A stretch of DNA of 63,283 bases, counting the filler, from Bigelowiella natans CCMP2755 (lineage: Eukaryota > Protista > Cercozoa), in assembly GCA_000320545.1 (NCBI GenBank). It is 4 parts of 4 records of this genome, joined end to end, with 100 filler letters (N's around TTAATTAATTAA, not from the genome) between each part and the next. Parts side by side here need not be neighbours in the genome. Positions count along the whole stretch, not along the records: positions 44,691 to 49,758 come from ADNK01001739.1; 3 more parts are not named here. One strand, written 5' to 3'. A program made the position numbers and the translations under genes. The first letter of the stretch is position 1, and every line of letters starts with the position of its first letter. Under the pieces are notes generated by a model. That model did no database searches. It was not told where the DNA came from and saw nothing but the letters and a program-made list of their open reading frames with translations. Of the stretch, positions 10,939 to 62,591 are shown piece after piece.

Positions 10939-12082
10939 CTCTATCTACAATGTACTACATGTCTGATGTATTTACGCATGGTATTAGTGCATACATATAC
11001 AGCGAAATTATGGAGCGATGTAGCTAGCCGTGATACGATACATGCTGCTGGCCAATGATAGACATGCAATGTGTCTATTATGCCACAGAAATAAGCTGCT
11101 ACGCTGCCAGTGGCCTACTAGCCTACGTGCGTGCATAGAATATTTCTAGATGTCTCTAGATGTGCATGGCAACCGTAACAAGCATAGAACAAGCAGTAAG
11201 TATGTGCACATACCTAGATACATCTAGATGCATAGCCGAACATGCATGCAGACGTGCTTGCAAGCTAGATGCCGACCGCGCTGCCGCCTCTCTTAACTTT
11301 TCTTTCATAGCGCTGATCGATCGATTCAACGCGCAGCGGCGCTGAGAATGTCTAGATGGCTGTCGTGTATGCACTCGCATCTAGCTGTCCACACATGCAG
11401 CGATTTAAAAATTTACAGCTGAGCCCTGCACGCTACGCTGCAAGTGCAACGCTCATCACCTTGCCATAACACCTTACATGCCGCTAATATCTGAGTGCAC
11501 CGCGCACAGCCATTGTTAAAGCATGCTATGCTCACGCTTGAATCTAGATATGTGTATTCGTAACATTTTGATTTACATCAAGACATTACATATCGAAGCA
11601 AACATCGAATGGAGAATAACTATAAACTTATAATTATGAAAATCTATATATTATGTCTATCTCTAATTATAGCTATATCTTCATATAAAAAGTTACGATC
11701 AAACAAAATTAACGAAAATATAACTTGAAATTTCAGGTATCACTGCAGAAAAGCAATTTTTCAATAATCTCCTCATTAACTGAACCATTCATTCCCATTC
11801 ATTCCAAGAACCATTGATAATTACAGGTCGAACGAATGCATTTTATGACTAATCTAGTAATGATTAATACTCAGTAATGCGAAATCTGTTTTAGTAGAAT
11901 CTGCATCAAGCAGGACCGACACTTTCTTCTTAAAATTACATTTTACAGCTGAAGAAGCGTCAAAATGACACAGTAGAATTAAAATCTTTTCGGCACGAAA
12001 GTATGAATAGAACTATAAGAACGTATGTGTCAACGGAAACGACTCATAACGTGAGAATATACGTTTAGAAAAGACAAGACGG

Positions 12083-13341: not shown

Positions 13342-14763
13342 ATAATCAATAAATCCAAATCGGTTTGAATAAAAACATGGCTACACAGAAACAAGTTTGA
13401 CTCTAATATATAAATCCACGCCTCGATTTACACCACTATGATAAGGAACATTCTCAGTGATGAAAGTGTTCACACGTAAAAGGAAATTTCTGCAGATGGA
13501 AGGGCAAAAAGGGCTTCGACGAGCTTGAAAATTTATGAGAGTTGAAAAATATTTACAGCGTTCGAATTGTATTGAACGAGTGCCAGGAATGAGAAAGGGG
13601 GGGGGACTGCAGAGGGTATTGAAGGGGGATTCGTACCGACAGAGCTATACGAAATTACTGGAAGGTAAGATCTATAGTTATTGCTAGACGACCTTTCAAT
13701 TTCGTCACTATGTTTTTGACCACAAATTATCTATTTATTGTACAAAGATCGATAAAAATATATGTCTCTATTAATTTATTGCCTATTTTTGAAGAATATT
13801 ATTCCAAAATATTTCTGCATTGATTCCATCTTGTACAGTCAATAATTTTGGCCATGAGAGTCAATAATACATATAAATGTCCTTTATTTCTTACATATGT
13901 TGTGAATGTCGGATATCTTTTTGGTCTTACATGAATTTTCGACTAAAGCTCAGCTCAAAAACCACAGAACTAGTTTATACGAAAATGGAGTATGAAGATG
14001 TAGGCTTACATTTAAGTCATTTTTTAAAGAACATAAAGAAATTCTAGTTATATTACGGTTTAATTGGAATTATCGATTAGATATTGATGTCTGAAAATCT
14101 TAGGTGGTGTACAGGTACCAGGCGCCATCTTAAAAGAGACAGATCTGCCCAAGTTGATGATTGTCGCTAACTGCAAAAACCCCTACATTCCAAGTGTTAC
14201 TCTGCACATTTCAGAGAAAATCATGTCTTTCGGAGGGCTGTTGATAGTACAGTTCTCTAATTTTTTAAGACTCACACACTGCTCGACGGAAATTCCCGAC
14301 GTACGTACCCCATGAAGTCCACAAACCAGGAGAACTCAAATGTGTTGCTACAACCAAAATCGAGCGACAATTCTCTCCTTGCGACAGCGATGAATGCATG
14401 TCACTCTTTTTTTCTCTAATGAAATATGTAGATTGCGCTCATGCGACATCTGCATTTTGAAGTCGCATGTCCATCGAGGCCATTTTTTCCTGTGAAAGTT
14501 CGAAGCGTTATGCGCCAGTGTCGTGACACTTTGGAAACGTTGTTCATTGTGCAGTTCATCATCATTGTTTCTTTCATCGTGGTGCACCTTTGAAAAATCG
14601 ATCGTTGGGAGTGTGTGCCAACCCACCCACTTTGTGACTTCCTCGTTGAGCAACAAGCTGGCAAGCGCAGTGATCATGGGCACAGCAGCAACAGGATGTC
14701 CAGGTGTCTGGCTGGCTGGGCTGGTCCAGTCTGGCAGTGGTCACATGGTGGACGTGCACGACA

Positions 14764-15089
14764 TGTTGCGCGTAAGGTGTTCACAGGCCGAGGCGCTACG
14801 TGCACAAGTAGGCAGGGGGGGGGAAAGGCACGTTTGCTTCCTTTTGAAGAGTTGTGTTTATTTTTATTAAAGATTATATTTTTATTAAATCGTGCACTGC
14901 GTAATCATTCGCGAAGCTTTCGCGAATGCCGCCGCACGTGGGGCAGCACACTTCCGGTGTGCTGCCATGAGTCCCGCCGGAACCCACGTGCCTATGCTGT
15001 ATTAATATCTACGTTATCTATATTCTATATCCGCGACAACCCCTTTGTTGTCGCACGTGACTTGTGCCCGCGTAGTGGTACGCGCTACA
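14764..15089 (-). mobile_element. Solo LTR (326 bp) of the Ty3/gypsy element
   Basis: TG...CA termini with imperfect terminal inverted repeat (TGTTGCGCGT / ACGCGCTACA). Appears identical to 20172-20497. Flanked by a 4-bp direct repeat GACA (target-site duplication). Confidence 0.92.
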
Positions 15090-36807: not shown

Positions 36808-38619
36808 TTGAGTGTTTTGGAGAATAAGAACAAGACCAAGAAGAGGGTTTTAAATTTGCACAAATTTGACTCTAGATTGACAACAACGCACTGTTTTCTG
36901 CTCACATGAGGATACTGCTAAAAACATGTAGCAATATTAAATATGTGTGACTTCTTGTGTTATACTTGACTGTATTCCGATGCGCTCACGAGCATCGTCA
37001 ATCATTGATACTCGTAGCTTCATATCTTCGCTACTCACTAGCTCAATTCACTACTATAATTTTGACAACAGTCACAGGCATAACTACGCGCATGATGAAT
37101 TGCACCCTTACCGTATGCGATGCAAGCAAGACCCACAACATAGCAGCGCAGTGGCGTAGCACAGCTAGCTAGTGGACAACGCATGCGGGCGGTGAGGCAC
37201 ATGATCTGTGCGCCATTTCTAGATTATATTGTATTGTTGCAATATCATTTCTAGGTTTGTTGCACATCGCCTGCAATGTGCACAAGCACGTAAGTGCGCA
37301 TGATGATCATGTACGTACAAACATGCATTGTTTTTCGACATTCGATCACTCGAGCAATTCGTGCTAGCATGTCTCCACATTGCTCGCACATGTGTCACTA
37401 GTTCTACAACTCACGCTAGCTACATAGCTAGCTCTAGAGCTAGCTCAGACAGCCTTGGCAATTCTCAGTACGTCGTTTGAACATGTTGCATCTGTGATGT
37501 TCATCCTGCACTCGTCATGCAATGCTCACTCAGCATGACATCGCAATTCCCGCACAGTCTTATTGATTTGTGGTTCTCATCGCGTTCATGGCATTGCTAG
37601 ATTGTGCCTCATCGCAATGGAAGTGCCACAGCACGCTAGCACGCTAGGACGTCTGGCAGCGCCATCTAGCTGTGCTTGCACATGCAGCATGGTGTCTATT
37701 GTCATGGTGGTTCCGGCCCATACTTCTCTCCAGATCTAGCTGTGCATCTGACTTCCATTGTTGGTTGTAATGTGAAACACTAGAGCACTTGAACGCGGAC
37801 AACACGGCGATGCCGACCCACTGTGTGTGCGCTGCAACAGCGCACACGTGCAATTCTGGAATTGCATCCAACGATGTGGAACATCCTTGCTTGATCCCCA
37901 TGAATTGAACTTTTGAAACTGTGCGCCAGAGATGAGGACCGTTTTCTTTTCAATTGGATGTTTTTCCAACAGTACAGGAAGAACACCTCTGGTGCACCAT
38001 CACTGCCACCTGAACATTGAATGTTGGACGTTGAACTTCGAACTGAGCAACACCAACGACAAAGAGTTTGCCCTCTCCGTGCCACCACGCCACTCTGCAC
38101 ACTATTTTTCATTTGAGGTAGTCCAGTTTCCAGTTCGTATCTCCAACATTCCGTTTCCTTTCCTTCCCCCCCCTTCACCCCACTGCATGACTGCACTTTC
38201 CGGCGCCAGCAAACCCAAATTTCCAGGAGTCATTGCATCGGTTGTCGCAGATGGAAAACCCGCCAACACTTCCGGCTGTGGCTGGAATCTGAGCTGCGAG
38301 TACCACACAATGTGAGCATGCGACAACAAAATTCAAGCGTTTTTTTAAGTTCTTAATTTTTCCATAGGGTTAAAGATCAAAATCGATGGGAATTTGTCCC
38401 TGCGACATACCCTAAATCGAAAAGTGATTCGACAGAGATAGTTGGGATCGATCACCAGAGAAGGGCAGCAATGGTGACTGCTTCCTGTTCCAGCGATTTT
38501 CCCCGCACCCTCGCTATCACCCCCGCTAGTTCCCAGCAAGATATCTAAGTAGAAATCGGACAATACAGTGGCTTCATGCGCTAGGCAACGTCAAGTGGAA
38601 ACAAAAGCGAAGAACTGAT

Positions 38620-42669: not shown

Positions 42670-44100
42670 GGAAGAAAAGCAGCATGTGTTCAACTAGATG
42701 AGCTGATGTAGCTTTAAGCACGTGCATGCAGTCATTGCCACATGCTAGCATGTGCACAGCTCTAGAGCTGTTGGCAATGAAGCTGCATGCATGTATGTTG
42801 CACGCCAACCCTGCAGCACGGATGGTGCATGCGCCACAAACAAAGCCACGCGGTCGAGTTTGGTCGCAGGCTAGCTAGCTATATAATATATATACGTATG
42901 TCTATTGTGCTAGCTAACACTTGCCGTGCATAAACTTCCCGATTGCCACAGCCAAGAGCACGCACAGATGCAGCAGGCTAGCTACTAGCAATGATGCATG
43001 CAAATTCGACAGATTGAATTCGTTATTGTTAATTTTGCTAGATTGCTAGATTGAGAAGGCAAGTTGAACTGGACATCTTCACAATCACCAGGACTGTTCA
43101 CCATTTATTTGTGATGACTGCATGTTAACATCACGACTCATGGACTCACGCATCACGCATTGCTAGTAGATCGACACACGCTCAACAACTACATGTAGCT
43201 GGCCAAACTAGCACTAGAGCAAACAAATCTGGACCTTGACGGGCGATTCAGCGACGCTGGCTAGCTCTAGAGCTGGCTAGCTAAGACAATTGATCCAGAA
43301 GCTAGCATGCAGCACATCAATCGAGTTACGCGCAATAAGATCTTGATCGAAGGCCCATTCTGAGACAAAATCTTTTGATGGCAAGAGGATTGCTTTGTCG
43401 TTTCACACTTCATGCAACACATTGCATCCAGTTAGATGATCATTGGCGCACAGTATAGCTAGCTAGCCTAGCTAGTTGCGGCGGTGCGCGTGGTGCACGT
43501 GCATGCTCGCGATGCCAAATTATCTGGCTAACAATTCTAGCTCATCATGCACAAATCAAATGAATGTGACTGTTTGTCACGTGCTAGCGTGCCAGTGGTT
43601 GTGAGGCGAGCGTAGCTAGCTAGCTAGGTAGCTAGCGAGGTAATGATCTAGTGATGCGTGTGTGAAAAGTGCCAAAGCTAGAAAGGCATGCATGACAAGC
43701 TTCACCAGCTAGCCAGTCTAGCTAATGACAGACACAGCAATACAAAAGTGATGTATTGGATGTCTATCATGCTAGCTAGACAGCTAGACAGGCGCTACAC
43801 AGCATGCATGTCGTGATCGATGTGCTCAATTTATCACTGCGTCGCATGTCTGCTCTAGCTAGCTAGTGCTAGATGTGCCACTCTAGCTAGCTAGCACTAC
43901 TACTACGACACAAGCTAGCAAGGTACGACTAGATAGACCAAAGGAGAGCGCATGACACATTTGCAGGCTTCATGAGTGGATGCGGCTACACGCACTAGTG
44001 TTATAGCGATGTTGTACACACATGATGTTACTAGATTCTCTTGTTCTGGTGAGTGAGAGAGCGAGCTTTGTTTTGCGTAAAATGCTGCAATGTGCATCAT
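42670..44100. other. GCTAGC/GCATGC/TGCA-rich intergenic tract (one of the longest of eight)
   Basis: Dense CTAG, AGCT, CATG and TGCA palindromes and (GCTA)n runs. Similar tracts at about 3100-3430, 10950-11600, 14390-15780, 24230-24750, 36930-37880, 53730-54780 and 60640-61570. Confidence 0.7.
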
Positions 44101-44590: not shown

Positions 44591-44690
44591 NNNNNNNNNN
44601 NNNNNNNNNNNNNNNNNNNNNNNNNNNNNNNNNNTTAATTAATTAANNNNNNNNNNNNNNNNNNNNNNNNNNNNNNNNNNNNNNNNNNNN
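44591..44690. other. Assembly spacer/gap
   Basis: N44-TTAATTAATTAA-N44. Confidence 0.97.
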
Positions 44691-44692
44691 AT

Positions 44693-45700
44693 CTACATTT
44701 TTTTATCTCCTTGCCTATTACTTGTAGCACTTGACCTTAATTCTTTCGCAACACTATCAATTTCTTTATCTCTAACAGATTTATCCACCTCTGCTCCTAA
44801 ACTTGCTTCTATTGTATTTGTCAAATCTATTGTAGGAATACTTACATTATATTTGCTCTTTAAATCATTGTAAAGGTCTCTTCCTGCCTGTGGGGTTTTA
44901 GGGGCATTCAACATCTTGCTACTCCCTTCAATGACGATTTTCAGTTCCTCGTCAGACTTATTTTTATTGCCTAATATGATGACACTTAGGTTCAATATCT
45001 TGAAGAAGACCATTAACTTTGATTTAGGAAAACTCTTAGCAGTCACTCTAAGTTGTTTGCCCCCAACATTACGAGTGAATGTTTTGTTCCCTTCAAAATG
45101 ATACTTCATCACTGATGCGATAAATTTAGCATATTTAACAACATCATCTTTTTTAATCGTGTTGTATTCCTTTTTTAATTGGGAATAAGCATTTCGTAAG
45201 TAGGTTAATTTTATCTCACTATAATCACCTTCCTCAAATAAATCAACGACTTGGTTAAGCATCTTTACATAAACACTCTCGCCTTTGAAGATGCTTTCCT
45301 TTTCAGTAGCAGGTTTCTCTTCATCTTCTTTCACCACAGATAAACCCTGTTTAAGAGCATCCCTTTCAGCAAAAAACTGCCTCTTATTTTCAAGCATATT
45401 TTTGAAAATGTTGTTGTAGTACCTACCTGAACCTCTTTTAGTAGTAGCATAAGCACTATTGCTATCAATAGGCATCGCCGAATGTAAAGATTGGATGTGT
45501 AATCTGTTGAATGCTCCTGTTGGTGTATCCGGAGGAAGGATATTGGGTAGTGATTTACCATTTATGTATTCATTCATTTTCTTCTTATTGTAATCAATAG
45601 ACTGCTTTGCCCTCTGTAAGATGAATCTTCGTGTGTTATCAAAGAAGGGGATTCGTCTTTTCTCGTCGTGTCCTTTTATCATAGCATTATTTTTTTTCAT
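44693..45700 (-). CDS. Virophage hypothetical protein (335 aa)
   Basis: Intact intronless Lys-rich ORF preceded by the TCTA-N13-ATG motif. Confidence 0.75.
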   Translation of the reverse strand: MKKNNAMIKGHDEKRRIPFFDNTRRFILQRAKQSIDYNKKKMNEYINGKSLPNILPPDTPTGAFNRLHIQSLHSAMPIDSNSAYATTKRGSGRYYNNIFKNMLENKRQFFAERDALKQGLSVVKEDEEKPATEKESIFKGESVYVKMLNQVVDLFEEGDYSEIKLTYLRNAYSQLKKEYNTIKKDDVVKYAKFIASVMKYHFEGNKTFTRNVGGKQLRVTAKSFPKSKLMVFFKILNLSVIILGNKNKSDEELKIVIEGSSKMLNAPKTPQAGRDLYNDLKSKYNVSIPTIDLTNTIEASLGAEVDKSVRDKEIDSVAKELRSSATSNRQGDKKM

Positions 45701-45720
45701 ATATATATATGTTTAGATAA

Positions 45721-46284
45721 TTATTTATTTAAAATTTCATTTGTATATAAAACACTCAATTCTAATGAATTGATACAGGTTTTATTTTTTATATGTTTTA
45801 AAATCCTATCAAACTCTTTGAGGTTGTATTTTGAAAAAGCGAACCTTAAGAGAACCCATCTTCCGCAGGTAGCATTGCTTTTATCGGTCCTGTTTTGGTA
45901 TATTTTCTTATTAAATATAGGTTTGTATCCGCTTTTCTTAATGAGGTTTAACAACACATCAGGCGAGACATTCATTTGGGAGTTTAGGTGCTTGTTAATA
46001 TTCTTAAAAGGAAATCCATAACTATCAAAAATTTCTATCGTGTGCTGTTTCCGTATTAAACCCAACCAGTGTCCTGAATTCTCCTCATTCAACCACAACA
46101 AGACACCGATATTACCATTGAATAGTTGGTCGGCAAATCGCAATTTCGGTAAGTCGGCAGATGTAGTTATCCTGATGTTAGGGTGAGCATTTGTTAAATC
46201 ATAATTGGAAAGAGGGTAGGATTTTAGACTGCTGACAAGGTTGTCTAAACTTTTATGGAAATCTACATTCTTACATAAATTCAT
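45721..46284 (-). CDS. Virophage maturation cysteine protease (adenain/Ulp1-like clan CE)
   Basis: Catalytic H (SGHWLGL), D (EIFDSYG), oxyanion Q (IYQ) and C (ATCGRW) in adenain order; 187 aa. Confidence 0.9.
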   Translation of the reverse strand: MNLCKNVDFHKSLDNLVSSLKSYPLSNYDLTNAHPNIRITTSADLPKLRFADQLFNGNIGVLLWLNEENSGHWLGLIRKQHTIEIFDSYGFPFKNINKHLNSQMNVSPDVLLNLIKKSGYKPIFNKKIYQNRTDKSNATCGRWVLLRFAFSKYNLKEFDRILKHIKNKTCINSLELSVLYTNEILNK

Positions 46285-46291
46285 ATATATA

Positions 46292-47059
46292 TTATTTGAG
46301 ATTTATAATTTTAGAGATAATCTTTTTGTATTTACACTTACATTTCTTTTTCTTTTTACATCCGCCTTCTACATAGTCGTTCCGTAATATCGTTGGGTTT
46401 CCATCCTCGTAATTATATAGTTTCCTAAAAGCAGGTTGGTCTAAACTGTGTGCTTTTATCATTGTCGGTGTAGGGTCTACTCTTCTTTTTATCCAATTAA
46501 AGAAACCTCTAACTTGCTCAGGATTGTATTTCAACACCTTCAACCTATCATATCTGTATCCGTTGTTAAGTCTATATAAAAAGTCTTTGTTTATGTATAT
46601 TCTCTTCACCTTATCGTTATTCTGTATCTTTATGTCTTGGGGTTGAGATGCTCCATTGAAGGTTGTAGCATATTTAATAAAAGGATACCTCCTTATAAAT
46701 TCATTCACTATCGCTCCACCCAAAGAATGACCTGTTATGAAATACAGATATTGATTGGGTTTATATTGCTTTATTATTTCGTCCATTCTCTTTATGTCAG
46801 TTTTAAATCTATTACTTGCTTGTAGATTGTTCCAAGCAATCTTGTAATCCGCATACAAATCACCCATACTTGTAGGTACAGTGCCTCTAATTGTTATTAA
46901 TATGACTTTGAGTTTCTCGTCTATATATACATCAAAAGTATCACTATCATATTTTAATTTTAGGTTTTCGTTTATGTCTGTAGGTGTTTGTTGATAGGAA
47001 TTCACAGAACCTATGTAATAATCTTTCTCATCAATGACATCTTTAAATTTTTTCACCAT
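46292..47059 (-). CDS. Alpha/beta hydrolase, lipase class 3-like
   Basis: ILITIRGT lid motif, ITGHSLGG nucleophile elbow, TTFN, KDFL, and C-terminal His (AHSL). Confidence 0.88.
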   Translation of the reverse strand: MVKKFKDVIDEKDYYIGSVNSYQQTPTDINENLKLKYDSDTFDVYIDEKLKVILITIRGTVPTSMGDLYADYKIAWNNLQASNRFKTDIKRMDEIIKQYKPNQYLYFITGHSLGGAIVNEFIRRYPFIKYATTFNGASQPQDIKIQNNDKVKRIYINKDFLYRLNNGYRYDRLKVLKYNPEQVRGFFNWIKRRVDPTPTMIKAHSLDQPAFRKLYNYEDGNPTILRNDYVEGGCKKKKKCKCKYKKIISKIINLK

Positions 47060-47121
47060 ATTAATTATTATATAGAAAATTTTATTGAGAAAAAATAATA
47101 TCTAATGATTTATATATATAT

Positions 47122-47770
47122 ATGTCACAGAATGCTGATAAATCACGAGCATCAGAGTTAGGATTACACTATGCTAAGAACATTATGGAAATGGATGACG
47201 AAGTTAAACAACTAAAGAATTTAATGGGTGCTGGATTTTGGAAAGACTTTCACAAAGGTTTTAAGCAGGGGTTTTCAATACCGATGAAAGTGGGTAAAAA
47301 ATTACTACCTGAGATAGCAGATGTCCTGGATGTAGCGAATGAAGTCGTCCAAGCATCTGGAGTAAAACACAAAAAGAAGAAGAAGAAAAAGATTAATGTG
47401 AAGGCACTCATTCAAAAAGTCAAAGGAAAAGGATACCACTATGGAGGTGCTGACAACAATAAAGACGATTGGGTAGTGGTAGACAAACCTCCAAAAGAAC
47501 TATTTCAGTGGGTAGAAAGCAACAAAGAATTTAAGAAAAGGATAATGGATAGGGTAAATAAAAAGTTGAAAAGTAGCAAAGGGAATAAGAAAAAGCAATA
47601 TCATCCAATGTGATAAAGGATTGAAGATTGTTAAGTCCAGGGTCAAATCCACAAATCCAAACGACAGAAGAAAACGAAGGGGTGCTTTGATTAAAAAATT
47701 GATGAAAGATAAGGGACTGAAGTTTATTGAAGCATCACAATACATAAAAAAAAACAATTTAAAATATTAA
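47122..47770 (+). CDS. Basic virion core-like protein split by a +1 frameshift (ORF 47122-47613 plus frame 47570-47770)
   Basis: The first frame has Gly motifs (LMGAGF, HYGGA) and a poly-Lys run. The +1 frame is open from 47570 to TAA 47770 and ends RRKRRGALIKKLMKDKGLKFIEASQYIKKNNLKY, which I recall as a conserved virophage C-terminal motif. Confidence 0.65.
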
Positions 47771-47778
47771 AAAAATTA

Positions 47779-47782
47779 TCTA
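47779..47782 (+). promoter_or_regulatory. Putative viral late promoter core TCTA (example copy, 13 nt before the penton ATG)
   Basis: TCT[A/C] in AT-rich context also occurs at 45714-45717(-), 46298-46301(-), 47073-47076(-) and 49099-49102(+), all 13 nt from the ATG, and at 47101-47104(+), 17 nt from the ATG. Confidence 0.75.
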
Positions 47783-47795
47783 AATTTTATTAATA

Positions 47796-49085
47796 ATGAA
47801 TAGTTATGTATTTGCTATGAACAATTTTAACAAGGAGCATCAAGACCACCTTTATTACAATTTGGATATTGTGAATAACGAGACCATAGACAGCAATAAG
47901 GATAATCCTGTGGTAAGTTATACAGACACCCTATCAAAGGCATTATTAGACGATGTCAGCAGTTGGTATTTCTCAATCATTCGGTTTCAATTAAATGGTG
48001 TAGGTAGAGAAATCCCTATATTCATACCTGAAATTGAGCGAGACCAGACCGATGCGAATAAGACCATTTACAAGATTACTCTGTTCTACCACTTTATTCA
48101 AAATGGGATACACCACAAAAAGTCTCAGACCGAAACTGTCTATTTTGAAACCCAGAACAAAAACACCAGTCCACCCACAACTGTAGGGAAGCAGATGGAT
48201 TTATCTACTAATTATTACTATGTCTCTACCTATAGTCATATAGCACACTTGATAAATAAAACTCTCAAACGATGTCACGAGAACCTGATTGCTAAATGTA
48301 AAGCAGAAGTACCAGGTCTTCTTTCTGATGAAATAACACATTTAGACAATCTCAAAGCACCTATACTTTATTATGAAGAAAGTTCGCAGTTATTTAAACT
48401 TTATTTAGACAAGGATATACACGGAAAGAAAAACAACAGGTTCAACAATACCATTTTTGATGTGAAAGGTAGATTGTTTTTTAACAGCAACCTCTTCTTA
48501 CTCTTCAGCAATTTTCATCACAACTATATTGGAGGCGACCTTAGAAACACTATAGAATATAACAGAGGCACGATTACTGATATAGTAGAAAATATGTCTA
48601 TACCAGGATGTGCCTACGATATTCTACCAATTGAGGATGATTTAGACATTCATTCACTCACCAAAGGAAATAAAACATATAGTATTTTATCCCAAGACTA
48701 TGAGAGTGTGAGCAGTTTATGGTGTCCAGTCAGTGCGATTGTATTTACTACCAATATCATTCCCATTGAGAGTGAAATCACAGGAACACCTTTAGAATTC
48801 GTAGACAAACAGCAAGTAAGCGATAGTAGGCAAGATACCTCCCAAAAGGTTATTAGTGATATGACAGTAGGTATTAGTAGTGCCGATGATTACAGCGGAA
48901 CGATTACCTATGTCCCAAGCGGTGAATACAGATATATTAACTTTACCTCTGCGAACATCCCCTTAAAAAGTATACAGATTTCGGCATTTTGGAAGCATCG
49001 GTTGACAGGTGATTTAGTCCCTATACGAATGCCTAACAAAAGTAGCATCCATCTAAAACTAATGTTTCAACGAAAGCAAAAATAG
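47796..49085 (+). CDS. Virophage minor capsid (penton) protein
   Basis: DHLYYNLDIVN, YFSIIRFQL..IPIFIP, QDYESVSSLWCPVSAIVFTTNIIPI, YVPSGEYRYI, FWKHRLTGDL and KLMFQRK are typical virophage mCP motifs. Lies directly upstream of MCP. Confidence 0.88.
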   Translation: MNSYVFAMNNFNKEHQDHLYYNLDIVNNETIDSNKDNPVVSYTDTLSKALLDDVSSWYFSIIRFQLNGVGREIPIFIPEIERDQTDANKTIYKITLFYHFIQNGIHHKKSQTETVYFETQNKNTSPPTTVGKQMDLSTNYYYVSTYSHIAHLINKTLKRCHENLIAKCKAEVPGLLSDEITHLDNLKAPILYYEESSQLFKLYLDKDIHGKKNNRFNNTIFDVKGRLFFNSNLFLLFSNFHHNYIGGDLRNTIEYNRGTITDIVENMSIPGCAYDILPIEDDLDIHSLTKGNKTYSILSQDYESVSSLWCPVSAIVFTTNIIPIESEITGTPLEFVDKQQVSDSRQDTSQKVISDMTVGISSADDYSGTITYVPSGEYRYINFTSANIPLKSIQISAFWKHRLTGDLVPIRMPNKSSIHLKLMFQRKQK

Positions 49086-49115
49086 TTTAAATTTTTTTTC
49101 TCGGTGTAATTATAT

Positions 49116-49758
49116 ATGAATTTAAGTAAGAAAGCAGTTTATGATGCTAGAACAGTTCAGTTACCACCTGAATACAAAATCTCTAAGAGTTCTATGTCAG
49201 TGAATAACAAACAGATTAAATCTTTATCCGCAAGTGCGAGTAATCAAAACTATAACATTACCATACCTTCTTTAAATGTCTTCGTTGACCGAAAGATAAA
49301 CTGGACCTCCGAGGTCACCCTTTTAGTCACCTTAAATAGAGGTGATTTTAAGACTACTGTTGATTTTGGTGTGGATGGAAACCCTGCTGCCGGTGCTAAA
49401 ATCGCAACCTTAAGTGAAATCTTATCCTTAAACAACTTCCCTTTACACAGAATGGTTTCCACAATGAGTTTACAAATCAACGATACAGTATCTACGACCA
49501 ATTTAGACCAATCCATTAACGAGCAGTTGCTTCTAATGACTACTGACCCAAAATATGATAGTAGCAGTGCGATTTGCCCTTCCTATTTATCACCTTATGG
49601 AAAATATAGCGAAGGCAAAGGAGCATTCAATAATAGTATTACTGGGTTCTTTGACGGCGATAAATTCTACCACAAGAATGGAGCACATTTTGATGTGAAC
49701 TTTGTAGATGAAAATGGCAATGTTTTAGCGGACAACTTTAATGGAAATGTGAACATAG
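49116..49758 (+). CDS. Virophage major capsid protein, N-terminal part (truncated by gap)
   Basis: SASNQNYNITIPSLNVFVDRKINW and FPLHRMVSTMSLQIND match the N-terminal motifs of Sputnik/YSLV-type MCPs. Follows the penton gene. Confidence 0.85.
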
Positions 49759-49858
49759 NNNNNNNNNNNNNNNNNNNNNNNNNNNNNNNNNNNNNNNNNN
49801 NNTTAATTAATTAANNNNNNNNNNNNNNNNNNNNNNNNNNNNNNNNNNNNNNNNNNNN
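49759..49858. other. Assembly spacer/gap
   Basis: N44-TTAATTAATTAA-N44. Confidence 0.97.
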
Positions 49859-49903
49859 TACGTCTGCACATAGATGAGATTGACTGACGCATACACATGC
49901 GCA

Positions 49904-51687
49904 GGAGGAGGAGGAGGGGTTAGAGCTGCGAGCACATGAGGGAGGTGCAATCCCTTCAAGATTGCAGAATCCTCCTCCTCCTCCTCCTTCTTCGTCTGGA
50001 TGAACCGCAGTGCTGCGATGGTGCTGCTTCTGATCACCGTAATGGCCGTGCGGGGTGATGGCGTCCAAACCGCCTAATAGAGGTTAGGAAATGTAACATC
50101 TATTAGAGAAAATGGGGATAGTCAGAAGAAGAAAAAGAAGAAGGAGGAGAAGGAGAAAGAAGAAAGAAAGAAAAACAAGAGTAACGTGAATCATGTACGG
50201 GCACTACGGTGCGCTGTTGCGCGCGTGCGCATGTGTATGCGTCAGTCAATCTCATCTATGTGCAGACGTAAACGTCGCGAACAATCCTTCCCAGCACCAC
50301 TCAATTTCGACACGTTATCTGCTGCAGAAGCATGCCCGCCTCCCTTCAGCATTACCAACGCCGTCGCCATCTTTGGCAAGCTGGGATGATGGCGCTTCTT
50401 CGTTGATGAGGCACTCTCGGAGCTGCTGATGATGCTCGGCTTCCTGCTGGCGATGTTGAGTCTCGTGCTGCCCCGAAAGGCGTTCTGACCACCAGACGAC
50501 TATCAAAACATAGCCGCCATACACGACGAGGAGAGCCAATGCTTCCCAGAGGTATATGGTGCCATCGACCGAAATCGCGAGGATTGCCGTCGTTGCGACG
50601 AAGTAGGCGATCAAGTCCCGGGAAAATGACTTGGAGCTCACTTCGACGTGCGATATTGTCTGCGACTGAGGAAGATGGTGACAATAAGAATCGTGTAGCT
50701 CTGGGACCTCTTCTCTTCCTTCTTTGGACTCTTTATCATCGCCGTTTTCCCCCTCCAGCTGTTGTGATTTGAGGAGTACCATTTCAGTAGTAATGTGGAT
50801 GCTTTCCCCTCCAATGCTAATTGCTTTCGGCTTTAAGCTCTTCCTCTTGCTCCCTTCGCTTCCCTTTTCGAGTGATTACAAGTGATGTTTGCGAGTGTGC
50901 GTCATGAACTCTAATGTGCACGCACAGGATTCTGCTAAATAGAAGCATCGATGCATGTGTTGTAGCGAGTGAGAGAGAGAAGGGGAGGAAGGGAGGAAAT
51001 GAAATCGTTAGGTATTCATAAGTTCGTTAATTCCTACCCTTTCTGTCGTACTAGGTAAGATTCCACCCACTTCATCACCATATTCTTCTTCCTTACTCTC
51101 CAGAGGCTGGTACTGAGAGCCTGCCCCTCGTTGTGATGATGATGGCCTCTGTTGTTGTCCCGCGCTCAGCAATACGGCCCCCAACACAACGGTGCTAATG
51201 AATGTCGAGGCACCCAATAGGGATCCGACTGCCAATCCGAAGTCGTTCGCCCCAGATATACCTGCAAGCGCGGTGAATACATCGGGGGCGCCATTCCCTA
51301 ATGCTAGTAGTGTGATCCCAGCCACCTTTTTTGTTAGAGGTATTTATCCGAATGTTTCGGCATCATTCAGTAATGGAAAACAAAATAATGAAAGATGTGG
51401 AAATCACAATTTAATACGATGGGTACCTCGGGTCGGAGGCGGAGATACTCGCTCATCCACTCCAGCTGCGGGACGAAATGGCGCTCCGCGGTGCTTGCAA
51501 GGAGACTGATCAGAAGAAACCCCCATGGGATGTATGCGCACAGCAATGAAATTCGCTCAATCCCTCCATGGGCATTGTCATATGCGAAAGCGTATGGAAG
51601 AAGGTTGGCTTCAGACATTACCCTCTCTTCGAACGCAGAGGGGTTCCCGTTTGATTTGGGTTTTGAGTCACAATTATTTTGGGTCAA
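49904..51687 (-). CDS. Cation/Ca2+ exchanger (CCX/NCLX family), 5' part
   Basis: LASTAERHFVPQLEWMSEYLRL, alpha-1 repeat AGITLLALGNGAPDVF, GSLLGASTFISTVVLG, FSRDLIAYFVA, and GTIYLWEALALLVVYGGYV. Truncated by the gap. Confidence 0.88.
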
Positions 51688-60594: not shown

Positions 60595-61570
60595 TCTCTG
60601 TTTGGTATTAGTAGTGGGAAAGTAGAGTGAGTACATAGTGCGAAGGATATCCGATAGGTGAGCGTGAGGCCATGCACGCATTGCAACAAAACGATTATGC
60701 TCGTGTGTGGGGCTGAATGTAATACATCATCGCCCCATGCTGCATGTGCTAGGTGTGCATGTGCATCTCTAAGACAAGAAATCAAACTCACAATTCTATA
60801 GTACACGTGATGCATATGCTAGCTAGCATGCCGACATACATAGTGCATAGCTAGATAGCCTATATCAATGAGCATCGATCATTAGCAACACGACTGCATT
60901 GTCGATCATTCTTAGTCTTTATTTGCAATCATGCAGGTGCGGTTGTCGCATGCAGCAGTCGTAAAGCCAACAAGTAGTATGCACCGCATGTACGCTGTGT
61001 AGCACAACCTAGCTAGCTAGCTAGTATGACATTAGATGGCAACGTTGCCGCGCGTCACCTAGGTCACTAGCACGTCTAATGTCACATGCACTATAATGCA
61101 GATTATTAGCGTAGCATGCTATGCCTAGCAGATAGCACAACTAAGATGCATGAATGAAGTGATTAAGCCTTTTTAATTATCGCTCTAAAATAATGATGCA
61201 TTATAGCTCTATGCTACTACGGCTGAATCGCTTATGTGCGACTCTGCTAGTTTTTCGATCACCGTGCTGTTGCGTATATCGGCTAGCTTCATCCAGTTCG
61301 CACATCTAGACATGTAAAAACGCAGTGTTACGTTGCTGCGCACATGCAAACATGTACATTCCCGCGTTCACGTACAATAATGTACGCCTAATAACTAGCT
61401 AGCTAGCATTCACGTCCATATTTGCCGTGCATGCACCTTGCTGGCGAGGAACACTCGCATCTTTTTTAGATATCATTATGTGCGCAGGAGGCATGCTGCA
61501 TGCTAGCATGTAGTGGGCCAACGCGCAGATCTGGCGATGCAAAGCTGCTCGCTTGCTAGCTTGCCTGTAT

Positions 61571-61611
<41 letters not shown>

Positions 61612-61663
61612 ATGATGCTGGCGCATGTCGATCAAAGGAAGTGTGAAAATGCTCATGCTACTT

Positions 61664-61864
61664 TTTCTACGACGACTTGTCCGCCTCGCCCTCCTTCGCA
61701 AACGTCAACGATGGCACGCTGCTGAAGTTGCGAATACCCATCTTCTCCTCGACTGACTTTAAGTCCTTTGGTAGATGGGAAAATGGAAGATAAGCAACAC
61801 TGTGTTGATGTTCTGTGTTTTATATGTTTATATCATATAATATGAATAAAATACAAACACAAAA

Positions 61865-61940
<76 letters not shown>

Positions 61941-62591
61941 AACATATTGATAAATATAATATGCATATTACACTTAATAAACAGAGACGATAGCAACCTC
62001 ATTTGTCAGCAAAGTCCAACCTGCAGATTCTGGCACTTCGATCTGAAAAATCGCCACCACACACACGCACACACGATTGTGAGCGGCCTCTACTACTCTT
62101 TTGCACTAGTGCTGCTGCTACTTCTGCTACTGCGGACGAGCACAGTACCCCTTCATGCTCGATTTGTAGTTGTAAGTCTTGGATGTCATCTTTGGATTGC
62201 ACCTCCAGGAGCTGATTGAGGGAAAAACCTGCTACCTGCAAACACACCATTCATTAACAAATTAATGGATTATGAGCACACATATCTTTACCAGGCCTAA
62301 ATAATAGCATCGTTACTTCATTAACCGATGTCCCCCCCCCTCCGCCCCCCCCCCGCCCCCCCTCTTCCCTCTCTCCTTCCCTGCCATTCCATTCCATGCC
62401 CCCCCCTTTTTTTTGTCCAGATTCACCACCAACCTCTTCTGATGCTTCTACAACGCCGCTAGTCATGAGAAAGTCAACTCTGCCTCACCAGCAACGCACG
62501 ACAACACCGAAACACACGAATCATACAAACATGGCCTGGTATGGGGAAACCCAGATAGAACTTGCAGCGACTCTCGTGCTCGATATGTAAG

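Follow-up and report, generated by a model that had tools for sequence, protein, structure and literature searches.

Is the AT-rich block at positions 44691-49758 of this window (63,283 nt of joined records from the Bigelowiella natans CCMP2755 assembly) a virophage resident in the nucleus of this alga, and could it act in antiviral defence, as a preliminary description of the DNA had proposed? Our results indicate that the contig is very probably the central portion of a virophage copy, one of several in the B. natans nuclear assembly, and that this copy is most likely an integrated provirophage belonging to a family published in 2015. In addition, transcript-like proteins that match one of its genes skip stretches of coding DNA with GT-AG ends, which suggests that the host spliceosome likely mis-splices such nuclear transcripts.

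The block is one 5,068-bp contig with identical artificial 100-nt linkers on both sides, each made up of 44 N, a 12-nt stop linker and 44 N; a third copy of the linker lies at 22769-22868. The GC content of the contig is 0.339, compared to a minimum of 0.41 among 172 host windows of equal length, and simple repeats make up 0.47% of it versus 1.8-2.9% of the three host contigs (~4-6 times rarer). CpG is also low (rho CpG 0.63). Coding sequence covers 94% of the contig, as six open reading frames (ORFs), three per strand, that diverge from ~47090. An AT-only stretch lies upstream of each of the six start codons and ends in TATAT for four of them. Thus, the preliminary picture of an AT-rich, compact and divergent six-gene block unlike host DNA was borne out by the GC, repeat and ORF measurements. 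The features are as follows (aa, amino acids; MCP, major capsid protein).

44591..44690, no strand: artificial linker, a gap or contig join; host-virus junction not visible
44693..45700, minus strand: N-terminal 335 aa of a hypothetical protein of ~550 aa, truncated by the contig end; no Pfam family
45721..46284, minus strand: predicted virophage maturation cysteine protease, clan CE, 187 aa (catalytic residues, fold, locus homologs)
46292..47059, minus strand: predicted class-3-like lipase / alpha-beta hydrolase, 255 aa (Ser112, Asp159 and His204 present)
47122..47613, plus strand: N-terminal 163 aa of the basic core-like protein; the C-terminal motif lies in another frame
47570..47770, plus strand: core-like protein C-terminal motif, +1 frame; no ATG ahead of the motif
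47796..49085, plus strand: virophage penton (minor capsid protein), 429 aa, complete (Pfam V18-19, Sputnik 3j26_N, sister model P0001)
49116..49758, plus strand: virophage MCP, first 214 aa, cut by the contig end (Pfam Sputnik_MCP_1st, sister model P0030)
49759..49858, no strand: artificial linker; host-virus junction not visible

In the virion, penton and MCP would build the capsid and the protease would trim the MCP tail, while the basic core protein would pack DNA and the lipase would likely act on a membrane at entry.

We compared the capsid genes with known families. The penton ORF matched the Sputnik V18-19 penton family in Pfam (PF21507; E=1.7e-17, 63.8 bits) and the Sputnik minor virion protein in the PDB (3j26_N; E=2e-12). 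The MCP fragment matched Pfam Sputnik_MCP_1st (PF21915; E=5.1e-28, 98 bits); phmmer of this fragment against the PDB returned chance matches only. The fragment, cut off by the linker, covers ~1/3 of the sister MCP, leaving ~2/3 absent from the contig, and the sister MCP P0030 (187/188 residues identical) stood in for the cut protein in deeper tests. P0030 matched both PF21915 and PF22031, and a 59-sequence MCP profile gave three matches in all, among them Sputnik V20 (E=4.8e-69) and mavirus (E=2.1e-8). A structure model of P0030 (predicted local distance difference test [pLDDT] 78.7) resembled the capsid of Sputnik with a template modeling (TM) score of 0.69 and that of mavirus with 0.64-0.65, the other capsids listed scoring 0.43 or less. 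In BFVD, the top match was Qinghai Lake virophage. With Sputnik (PDB 3J26 capsid V20, penton V18/19), the contig shares MCP, penton and protease families and the double jelly-roll fold, although the capsids are only 19% identical in the structural alignment; the mavirus capsid is homologous, yet more distant (13-14% identity). Thus, the earlier statement that MCP and penton are virophage core genes agrees with the Pfam, PDB, profile and fold matches.

The protease had been called a clan CE virophage enzyme, and its residues and fold support the call. All 46 aligned sequences (the window and 45 of the 67 distinct homologs from the loci) keep His72, Asp87, Gln130 and Cys140, homologs occur in 98 of 160 virophage loci, and the model (pLDDT 89.5) gave clan CE enzymes as its best folds, adenovirus protease and poxvirus I7L among them. 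The lipase call also held: the Ser-Asp-His set is invariant in 22 of 22 sequences and the profile matched fungal lipases (best E=1.6e-5), single-sequence Pfam matches falling below the cut-off. Protease, lipase and penton are whole, with the catalytic residues of both enzymes intact.

Since the preliminary description had singled out grouping with Polintons or Polinton-like viruses (PLVs) as an outcome that would overturn it, we weighed this alternative. Sputnik-family Pfam models scored above their own cut-offs with no Polinton or PLV family among the Pfam matches, four of the six best BFVD folds for P0030 are named virophage or mavirus capsids (a fifth is unnamed), and a MELD-virus entry reached a TM score of only 0.41. 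Several observations weigh against a virophage: the remaining BFVD entry, at rank 4 with a TM score of 0.64, is labelled 'Adintovirus sp.'; the protease is weak by sequence alone (Pfam C48, E=0.029); and the best match of its profile in the PDB was an unrelated enzyme (E=0.049), phmmer of the protease against the PDB also giving chance matches only. However, Roux et al. (PMC9952930) describe five 'adintoviruses' as Maveriviricetes, i.e., virophages, and report that virophage markers score PLV genes below 10 bits. The Maveriviricetes criteria given there are a virophage-type MCP (the main one), protease and packaging ATPase, with a penton and a 15-45 kb genome expected; the contig has the MCP (judged by Pfam, profile and fold, not by the profiles of the International Committee on Taxonomy of Viruses), the cysteine protease and the penton, and the packaging ATPase is absent from its 5 kb. 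A Polinton or PLV is therefore scarcely credible here, and we conclude that the genes on the contig are a virophage morphogenesis module.

Best matches to the window proteins bear B. natans gene-model labels, and the Bigelowiella context given in the preliminary description is supported by both identical and near-identical models. One model, P0084, shows zero mismatches to the window across three blocks (lipase, protease and a 311-aa stretch of the hypothetical protein) and stops at the same last residue. Because of these blocks and this shared end, P0084 is most likely a gene model of the window's own copy, in which false introns would fuse three viral genes. Models labelled with scaffolds 2, 54, 57, 77, 85, 119, 146, 161 and 187 are 94-99.5% identical in their main blocks; following the usual naming practice, we take the number in a label to be that of the scaffold. 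Identity reached 427/429 for the penton (P0001), 187/188 (P0030), 199/211 and 176/188 for the MCP, and 96-98% for the hypothetical protein. P0069 has the same core-penton-MCP order as the window, and the scaffold-85 models of MCP, penton and hypothetical protein carry near-consecutive numbers. An MCP search of 1.8 billion representatives returned one at 95% identity, the next best being 40-43% identical. Public models P0069, P0084, P0088 and P0095 fuse adjacent viral ORFs through predicted introns, and their sequences should not be read as genuine products; such fused models of B. natans elements are unreliable and can mislead database searches.

Reviews that summarize Blanc et al. (2015) describe 38 heterogeneous low-GC virophage elements in the B. 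natans nuclear genome (PMC6723459, PMC11172284, PMC6905037). Many are truncated, six have terminal inverted repeats (TIRs), most are transcribed and an integrase domain is reported (PMC6723459, PMC11172284). One review places the B. natans virophage in clade Vp.cl15 with Yellowstone Lake virophage 5 (YSLV5), and our family-level placement of the contig rests on that statement (PMC6905037). As the contig shares with these elements the species label, low GC relative to flanks, many similar copies, truncation and transcription, with no difference seen, it is most likely a copy of the family published in 2015, hence already known. Since provirophages of B. natans are a textbook case, another copy contributes little by itself.

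We also compared the contig with 160 uncultured virophage loci (L001-L160) chosen by presence of a penton (160/160). MCP was found in 142, protease in 98, lipase in 38 and the core C-terminal motif in 23. The commonest order is protease-penton-MCP on one strand, while the divergent order of the window occurred in none of the 160, many of which are short. Single-protein pattern scans of viral contigs found no relative (0/6 and 0/7), whereas an alignment query succeeded. The closest locus by penton (L081:1-14490; 38%) carries two tandem core-like genes, a penton and a D5-type primase-helicase, together with an inverted MCP C-terminal fragment and cellular-looking genes (a Sel1-repeat protein and hydrolase-like ORFs); it is possibly another rearranged endogenous virophage.

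The claim that the ORFs are mostly intact is overstated. Two of the six (hypothetical and MCP) are cut by the contig ends, so that both ends fall inside viral genes, and a third, the core-like gene, is frameshifted as assembled, ahead of its C-terminal motif. In comparison, the conserved basic C-terminal motif closes 11 of 13 locus ORFs that have the core-like N-terminal motif, in one frame. Short A runs lie in the frame-switch zone, and either a lesion or an assembly error fits. A programmed -1 frameshift was set aside, since the offset is +1. The middle of the core-like gene is wholly unlike P0069, whose own middle resembles the second core-like gene of L081; P0069, a mis-spliced model, may join two genes.

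Three sister models give the hypothetical protein a length of 548-554 aa, versus 335 aa in the window. The window ORF stops just 2 nt short of the contig end, at a point where its frame departs from that of sister P0085; this stop is probably an end-of-contig error. By tblastn the protein had no match in the 160 loci, and in Atlas no match above 0.78; its profile weakly matched L082 (E=0.008) and L102 (E=0.72), and the protein weakly resembles the gene that precedes the ATPase in two loci of free virophages. In sister models P0085 and P0088 the hypothetical gene runs into an ATPase-like part, which in P0085 matches the ATPase ORF of L002 (E=2e-8). Thus, the earlier suggestion that the ATPase lies in the gaps can be narrowed to the left gap, as the likely place.

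We examined proteins of probable RNA origin that match this gene. A search with the hypothetical protein gave 16 matches (eight B. natans models, five MMETSP, two JGI/IMG and one ENA), and a cluster look-up added four MMETSP and two JGI/IMG sequences, yielding 13 transcript-like proteins (nine MMETSP and four JGI/IMG). All 13 align to the window as blocks that are 91-100% identical, each protein skipping at least one stretch. The skips map to the following positions.

45347..45426, minus strand: 80-nt skipped segment with GT-AG ends, removal shifts the frame (transcript-like proteins of sister copies)
44971..45228, minus strand: 258-nt skipped segment with GT-AG ends, 86 codons removed in frame (transcript-like proteins)
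44783..44845, minus strand: two alternative GT donors, 44845 and 44788, with one acceptor beyond the contig end (residue 377 of sister P0082)

The 80-nt skip is present in 12 of the 13 proteins, with a GT-AG fit in 11 of the 12, the remaining one being untestable; the 258-nt skip is also present in 12, including all nine from MMETSP, and fits GT-AG in all 12. For a random skip, the chance of such a fit is 0.055 (80 nt) and 0.033 (258 nt). A fourth skip is located beyond the contig. Since the skipped DNA codes in frame, and since the distant homolog P0087 (46% identity over 99% of the query) retains it, the skips look like cryptic splices rather than evolved introns. The earlier word 'intronless' therefore holds for the ORFs as DNA but not for the transcript-like proteins of sister copies, which are spliced. 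The short proteins P0071, P0072 and P0200 follow the sister MCP P0030 and then end in unrelated residues (after ~551-557 and 393-400); at these switch points, which lie outside the window, capsid transcripts may also be spliced or chimeric.

We conclude that the host spliceosome likely mis-splices nuclear transcripts of the hypothetical gene, as judged from these alignments. No unspliced MMETSP product was found among the matches, though its length would be in range; assemblers drop minor forms. Other features of the data count against this conclusion. The 13 proteins are isoforms and sister copies from few assemblies, not independent events, and the evidence consists of only two complete junctions and two further donors in one gene. 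The proteins are tied to the window by sequence match, not by organism label, and the four JGI/IMG sequences are presumed to derive from RNA. Moreover, the junctions hold 3-4 nt of microhomology, such that any single one could be a DNA deletion. Splicing of virophage transcripts is not reported in the literature searched (including PMC10120064 and PMC12220804), a search outside which the 2015 B. natans study and the bioRxiv supplements fall.

A broader idea, which we regard as doubtful, is that the spliceosome forms a nuclear barrier, at which constitutive provirophage transcripts would be spliced at cryptic GT-AG sites, leaving messages that are shifted or shortened. A likeness exists in mechanism, not kinship: AT-rich, cytoplasm-adapted genes of yeast cytoplasmic virus-like elements are likewise damaged upon nuclear expression, although their transcripts are fragmented whereas those of B. 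natans appear GT-AG spliced (PMC4431711). If the idea is true, 'transcriptionally active' copies would give rise to little intact viral protein before a giant virus brings its own transcription route, and the reading of endogenous virophage expression as evidence of defence would change. Earlier work has taken expression of these elements as a sign of possible antiviral function, and all transcript-like products of the tested gene are shifted or shortened. If splicing extends to the capsid and ATPase genes, transcription alone would say nothing about function.

A second form of host damage has been described in B. natans. Mettrop et al. report TpA-specific A/T-to-G/C hypermutation of one giant-virus insert and of a virophage region on scaffold 146 (bioRxiv 10.64898/2026.01.13.699255). 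We rejected such hypermutation for the window copy: rho TpA is 0.87 and the TpA share 9.5%, and only 4 of 51 window-unique differences are of the sister-TA to window-CA/TG type (4 of 26 transitions versus 11% expected). In contrast, five changes common to P0089 and P0101 fall within 21 codons (44872-44812, minus strand), all explicable as TpA to CpA or TpG, a type that makes up 18% (564/3,076) of the possible non-synonymous transitions. The cluster was read from proteins, is a single one and was picked after the fact; the sister copy behind P0089 and P0101 was likely hit by the reported hypermutation. If the splicing barrier is real, splicing and copy-specific TpA hypermutation would be two host layers restraining resident virophages.

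Is the contig integrated, and where? The label of P0084 bears the scaffold number 41. Scaffold size in B. natans falls with number (scaffold 74, 544,257 bp; 146, ~42 kb; 226, 4,360 bp; bioRxiv 10.64898/2026.01.13.699255). Together, the label and the size order place the contig likely in a scaffold of more than 0.5 Mb, and this placement, the many diverged copies and the spliced transcripts lend indirect support to integration. Against it, no host-virus junction, TIR, target-site duplication or integrase was found in the window, both contig ends being linkers. A long inverted repeat pairing the contig ends was not found, and 1,963 query ORFs (from virophage loci and sister proteins) gave 0 matches elsewhere in the window. 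This last result, with both ends inside viral genes and sister copies whose near-identity (94-99.5% in the main blocks) is hard for a scaffolder, would also fit an integrated virophage family whose repeats were collapsed or mis-scaffolded, so that this contig does not belong between the two host contigs around it. We consider such mis-placement unlikely but worth keeping in mind; the P0084 label, if its number is that of the scaffold, points instead to the large scaffold. The lack of a visible junction and the compact, AT-rich, low-CpG DNA would equally suit a free virophage genome from the culture, assembled along with algal DNA. This is very improbable, since divergent copies occur under the labels of ten scaffolds, the GT-AG skips imply nuclear passage and chromosome-integrated copies are described in reviews (PMC6905037, PMC6723459, PMC11172284).

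Whether the copy could be fully competent and inducible for defence, as integrated mavirus is, depends on reading the frameshift and cut ends as assembly errors. The full-length protease, lipase and penton with intact catalytic residues, the undepleted TpA (rho 0.87) and the short A runs in the frame-switch zone are consistent with competence, and integrated mavirus does reactivate upon infection with Cafeteria roenbergensis virus (CroV) (bioRxiv 10.1101/068312). However, the core-like gene is split across frames where 11 of 13 locus ORFs hold both motifs in one, most family elements are reported as truncated (PMC6723459, PMC11172284) and, according to one review, a giant virus of B. natans is undescribed. 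We therefore regard full competence as improbable. Mavirus and the endogenous mavirus-like elements (EMALEs) of Cafeteria share nuclear integration with the B. natans family (bioRxiv 10.1101/068312, PMC8547959, PMC10945749), whereas Sputnik, according to a review, integrates into giant-virus genomes and was not found in Acanthamoeba genomes. In contrast to integrated mavirus, which is silent until CroV infection (bioRxiv 10.1101/068312), the B. natans family is reported to be transcribed without a known helper, and in these sources defence is demonstrated only for mavirus, not for the B. natans elements. Mavirus-like defence is possible for the family and less likely for the window copy, which the core-gene frameshift, if real, makes a weak candidate.

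A model for the preferred reading, an integrated provirophage of the 2015 family, is that, once the virus had reached the nucleus, its own integrase, encoded outside the window, inserted it. Near-identical repeats would have broken the assembly into short contigs, with the ATPase, the termini and the missing portion of the MCP either in the gaps or lost. Nuclear transcription of integrated members, at least of the sister copies, would expose their messages to the host spliceosome, which likely picks up chance GT-AG signals in AT-rich frames and produces a shifted or shortened message, at least for the hypothetical gene. A defence role would need a giant virus that reactivates an intact copy.

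The flanks are ordinary eukaryotic DNA and encode a flavin oxidoreductase, part of a Na/Ca exchanger and a retroelement pol. Between genes, tracts rich in the words CTAG/GCTAGC lie at 43000-44000, 37001-38000, 61001-62000 and 11001-12000; these words reach 36 per kb next to the viral contig versus 0-8 in most windows, and the tracts had no match to viral sequence with the 1,963 query ORFs. The CTAG-rich tract of the left flank, with its hairpins, was rejected as a TIR, having no matching right arm and no viral similarity. From the first base of the right contig, a perfect 45-bp inverted repeat (49859-49903 / 50226-50270, 322 nt apart) is either a small transposon-like element or an assembly artefact. 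The retroelement pol (20549-22768, minus strand) encodes RNase H and an integrase zinc-binding domain, is open for 739 codons and is cut by a linker; it is TpA-rich (rho 1.18) and CpG-poor (0.56), unlike its surroundings. A ~120-codon stretch is duplicated 5.5 kb apart, at 14594-15124 and at 20128-20544, the latter beside the pol gene, and the two copies are candidate long terminal repeats.

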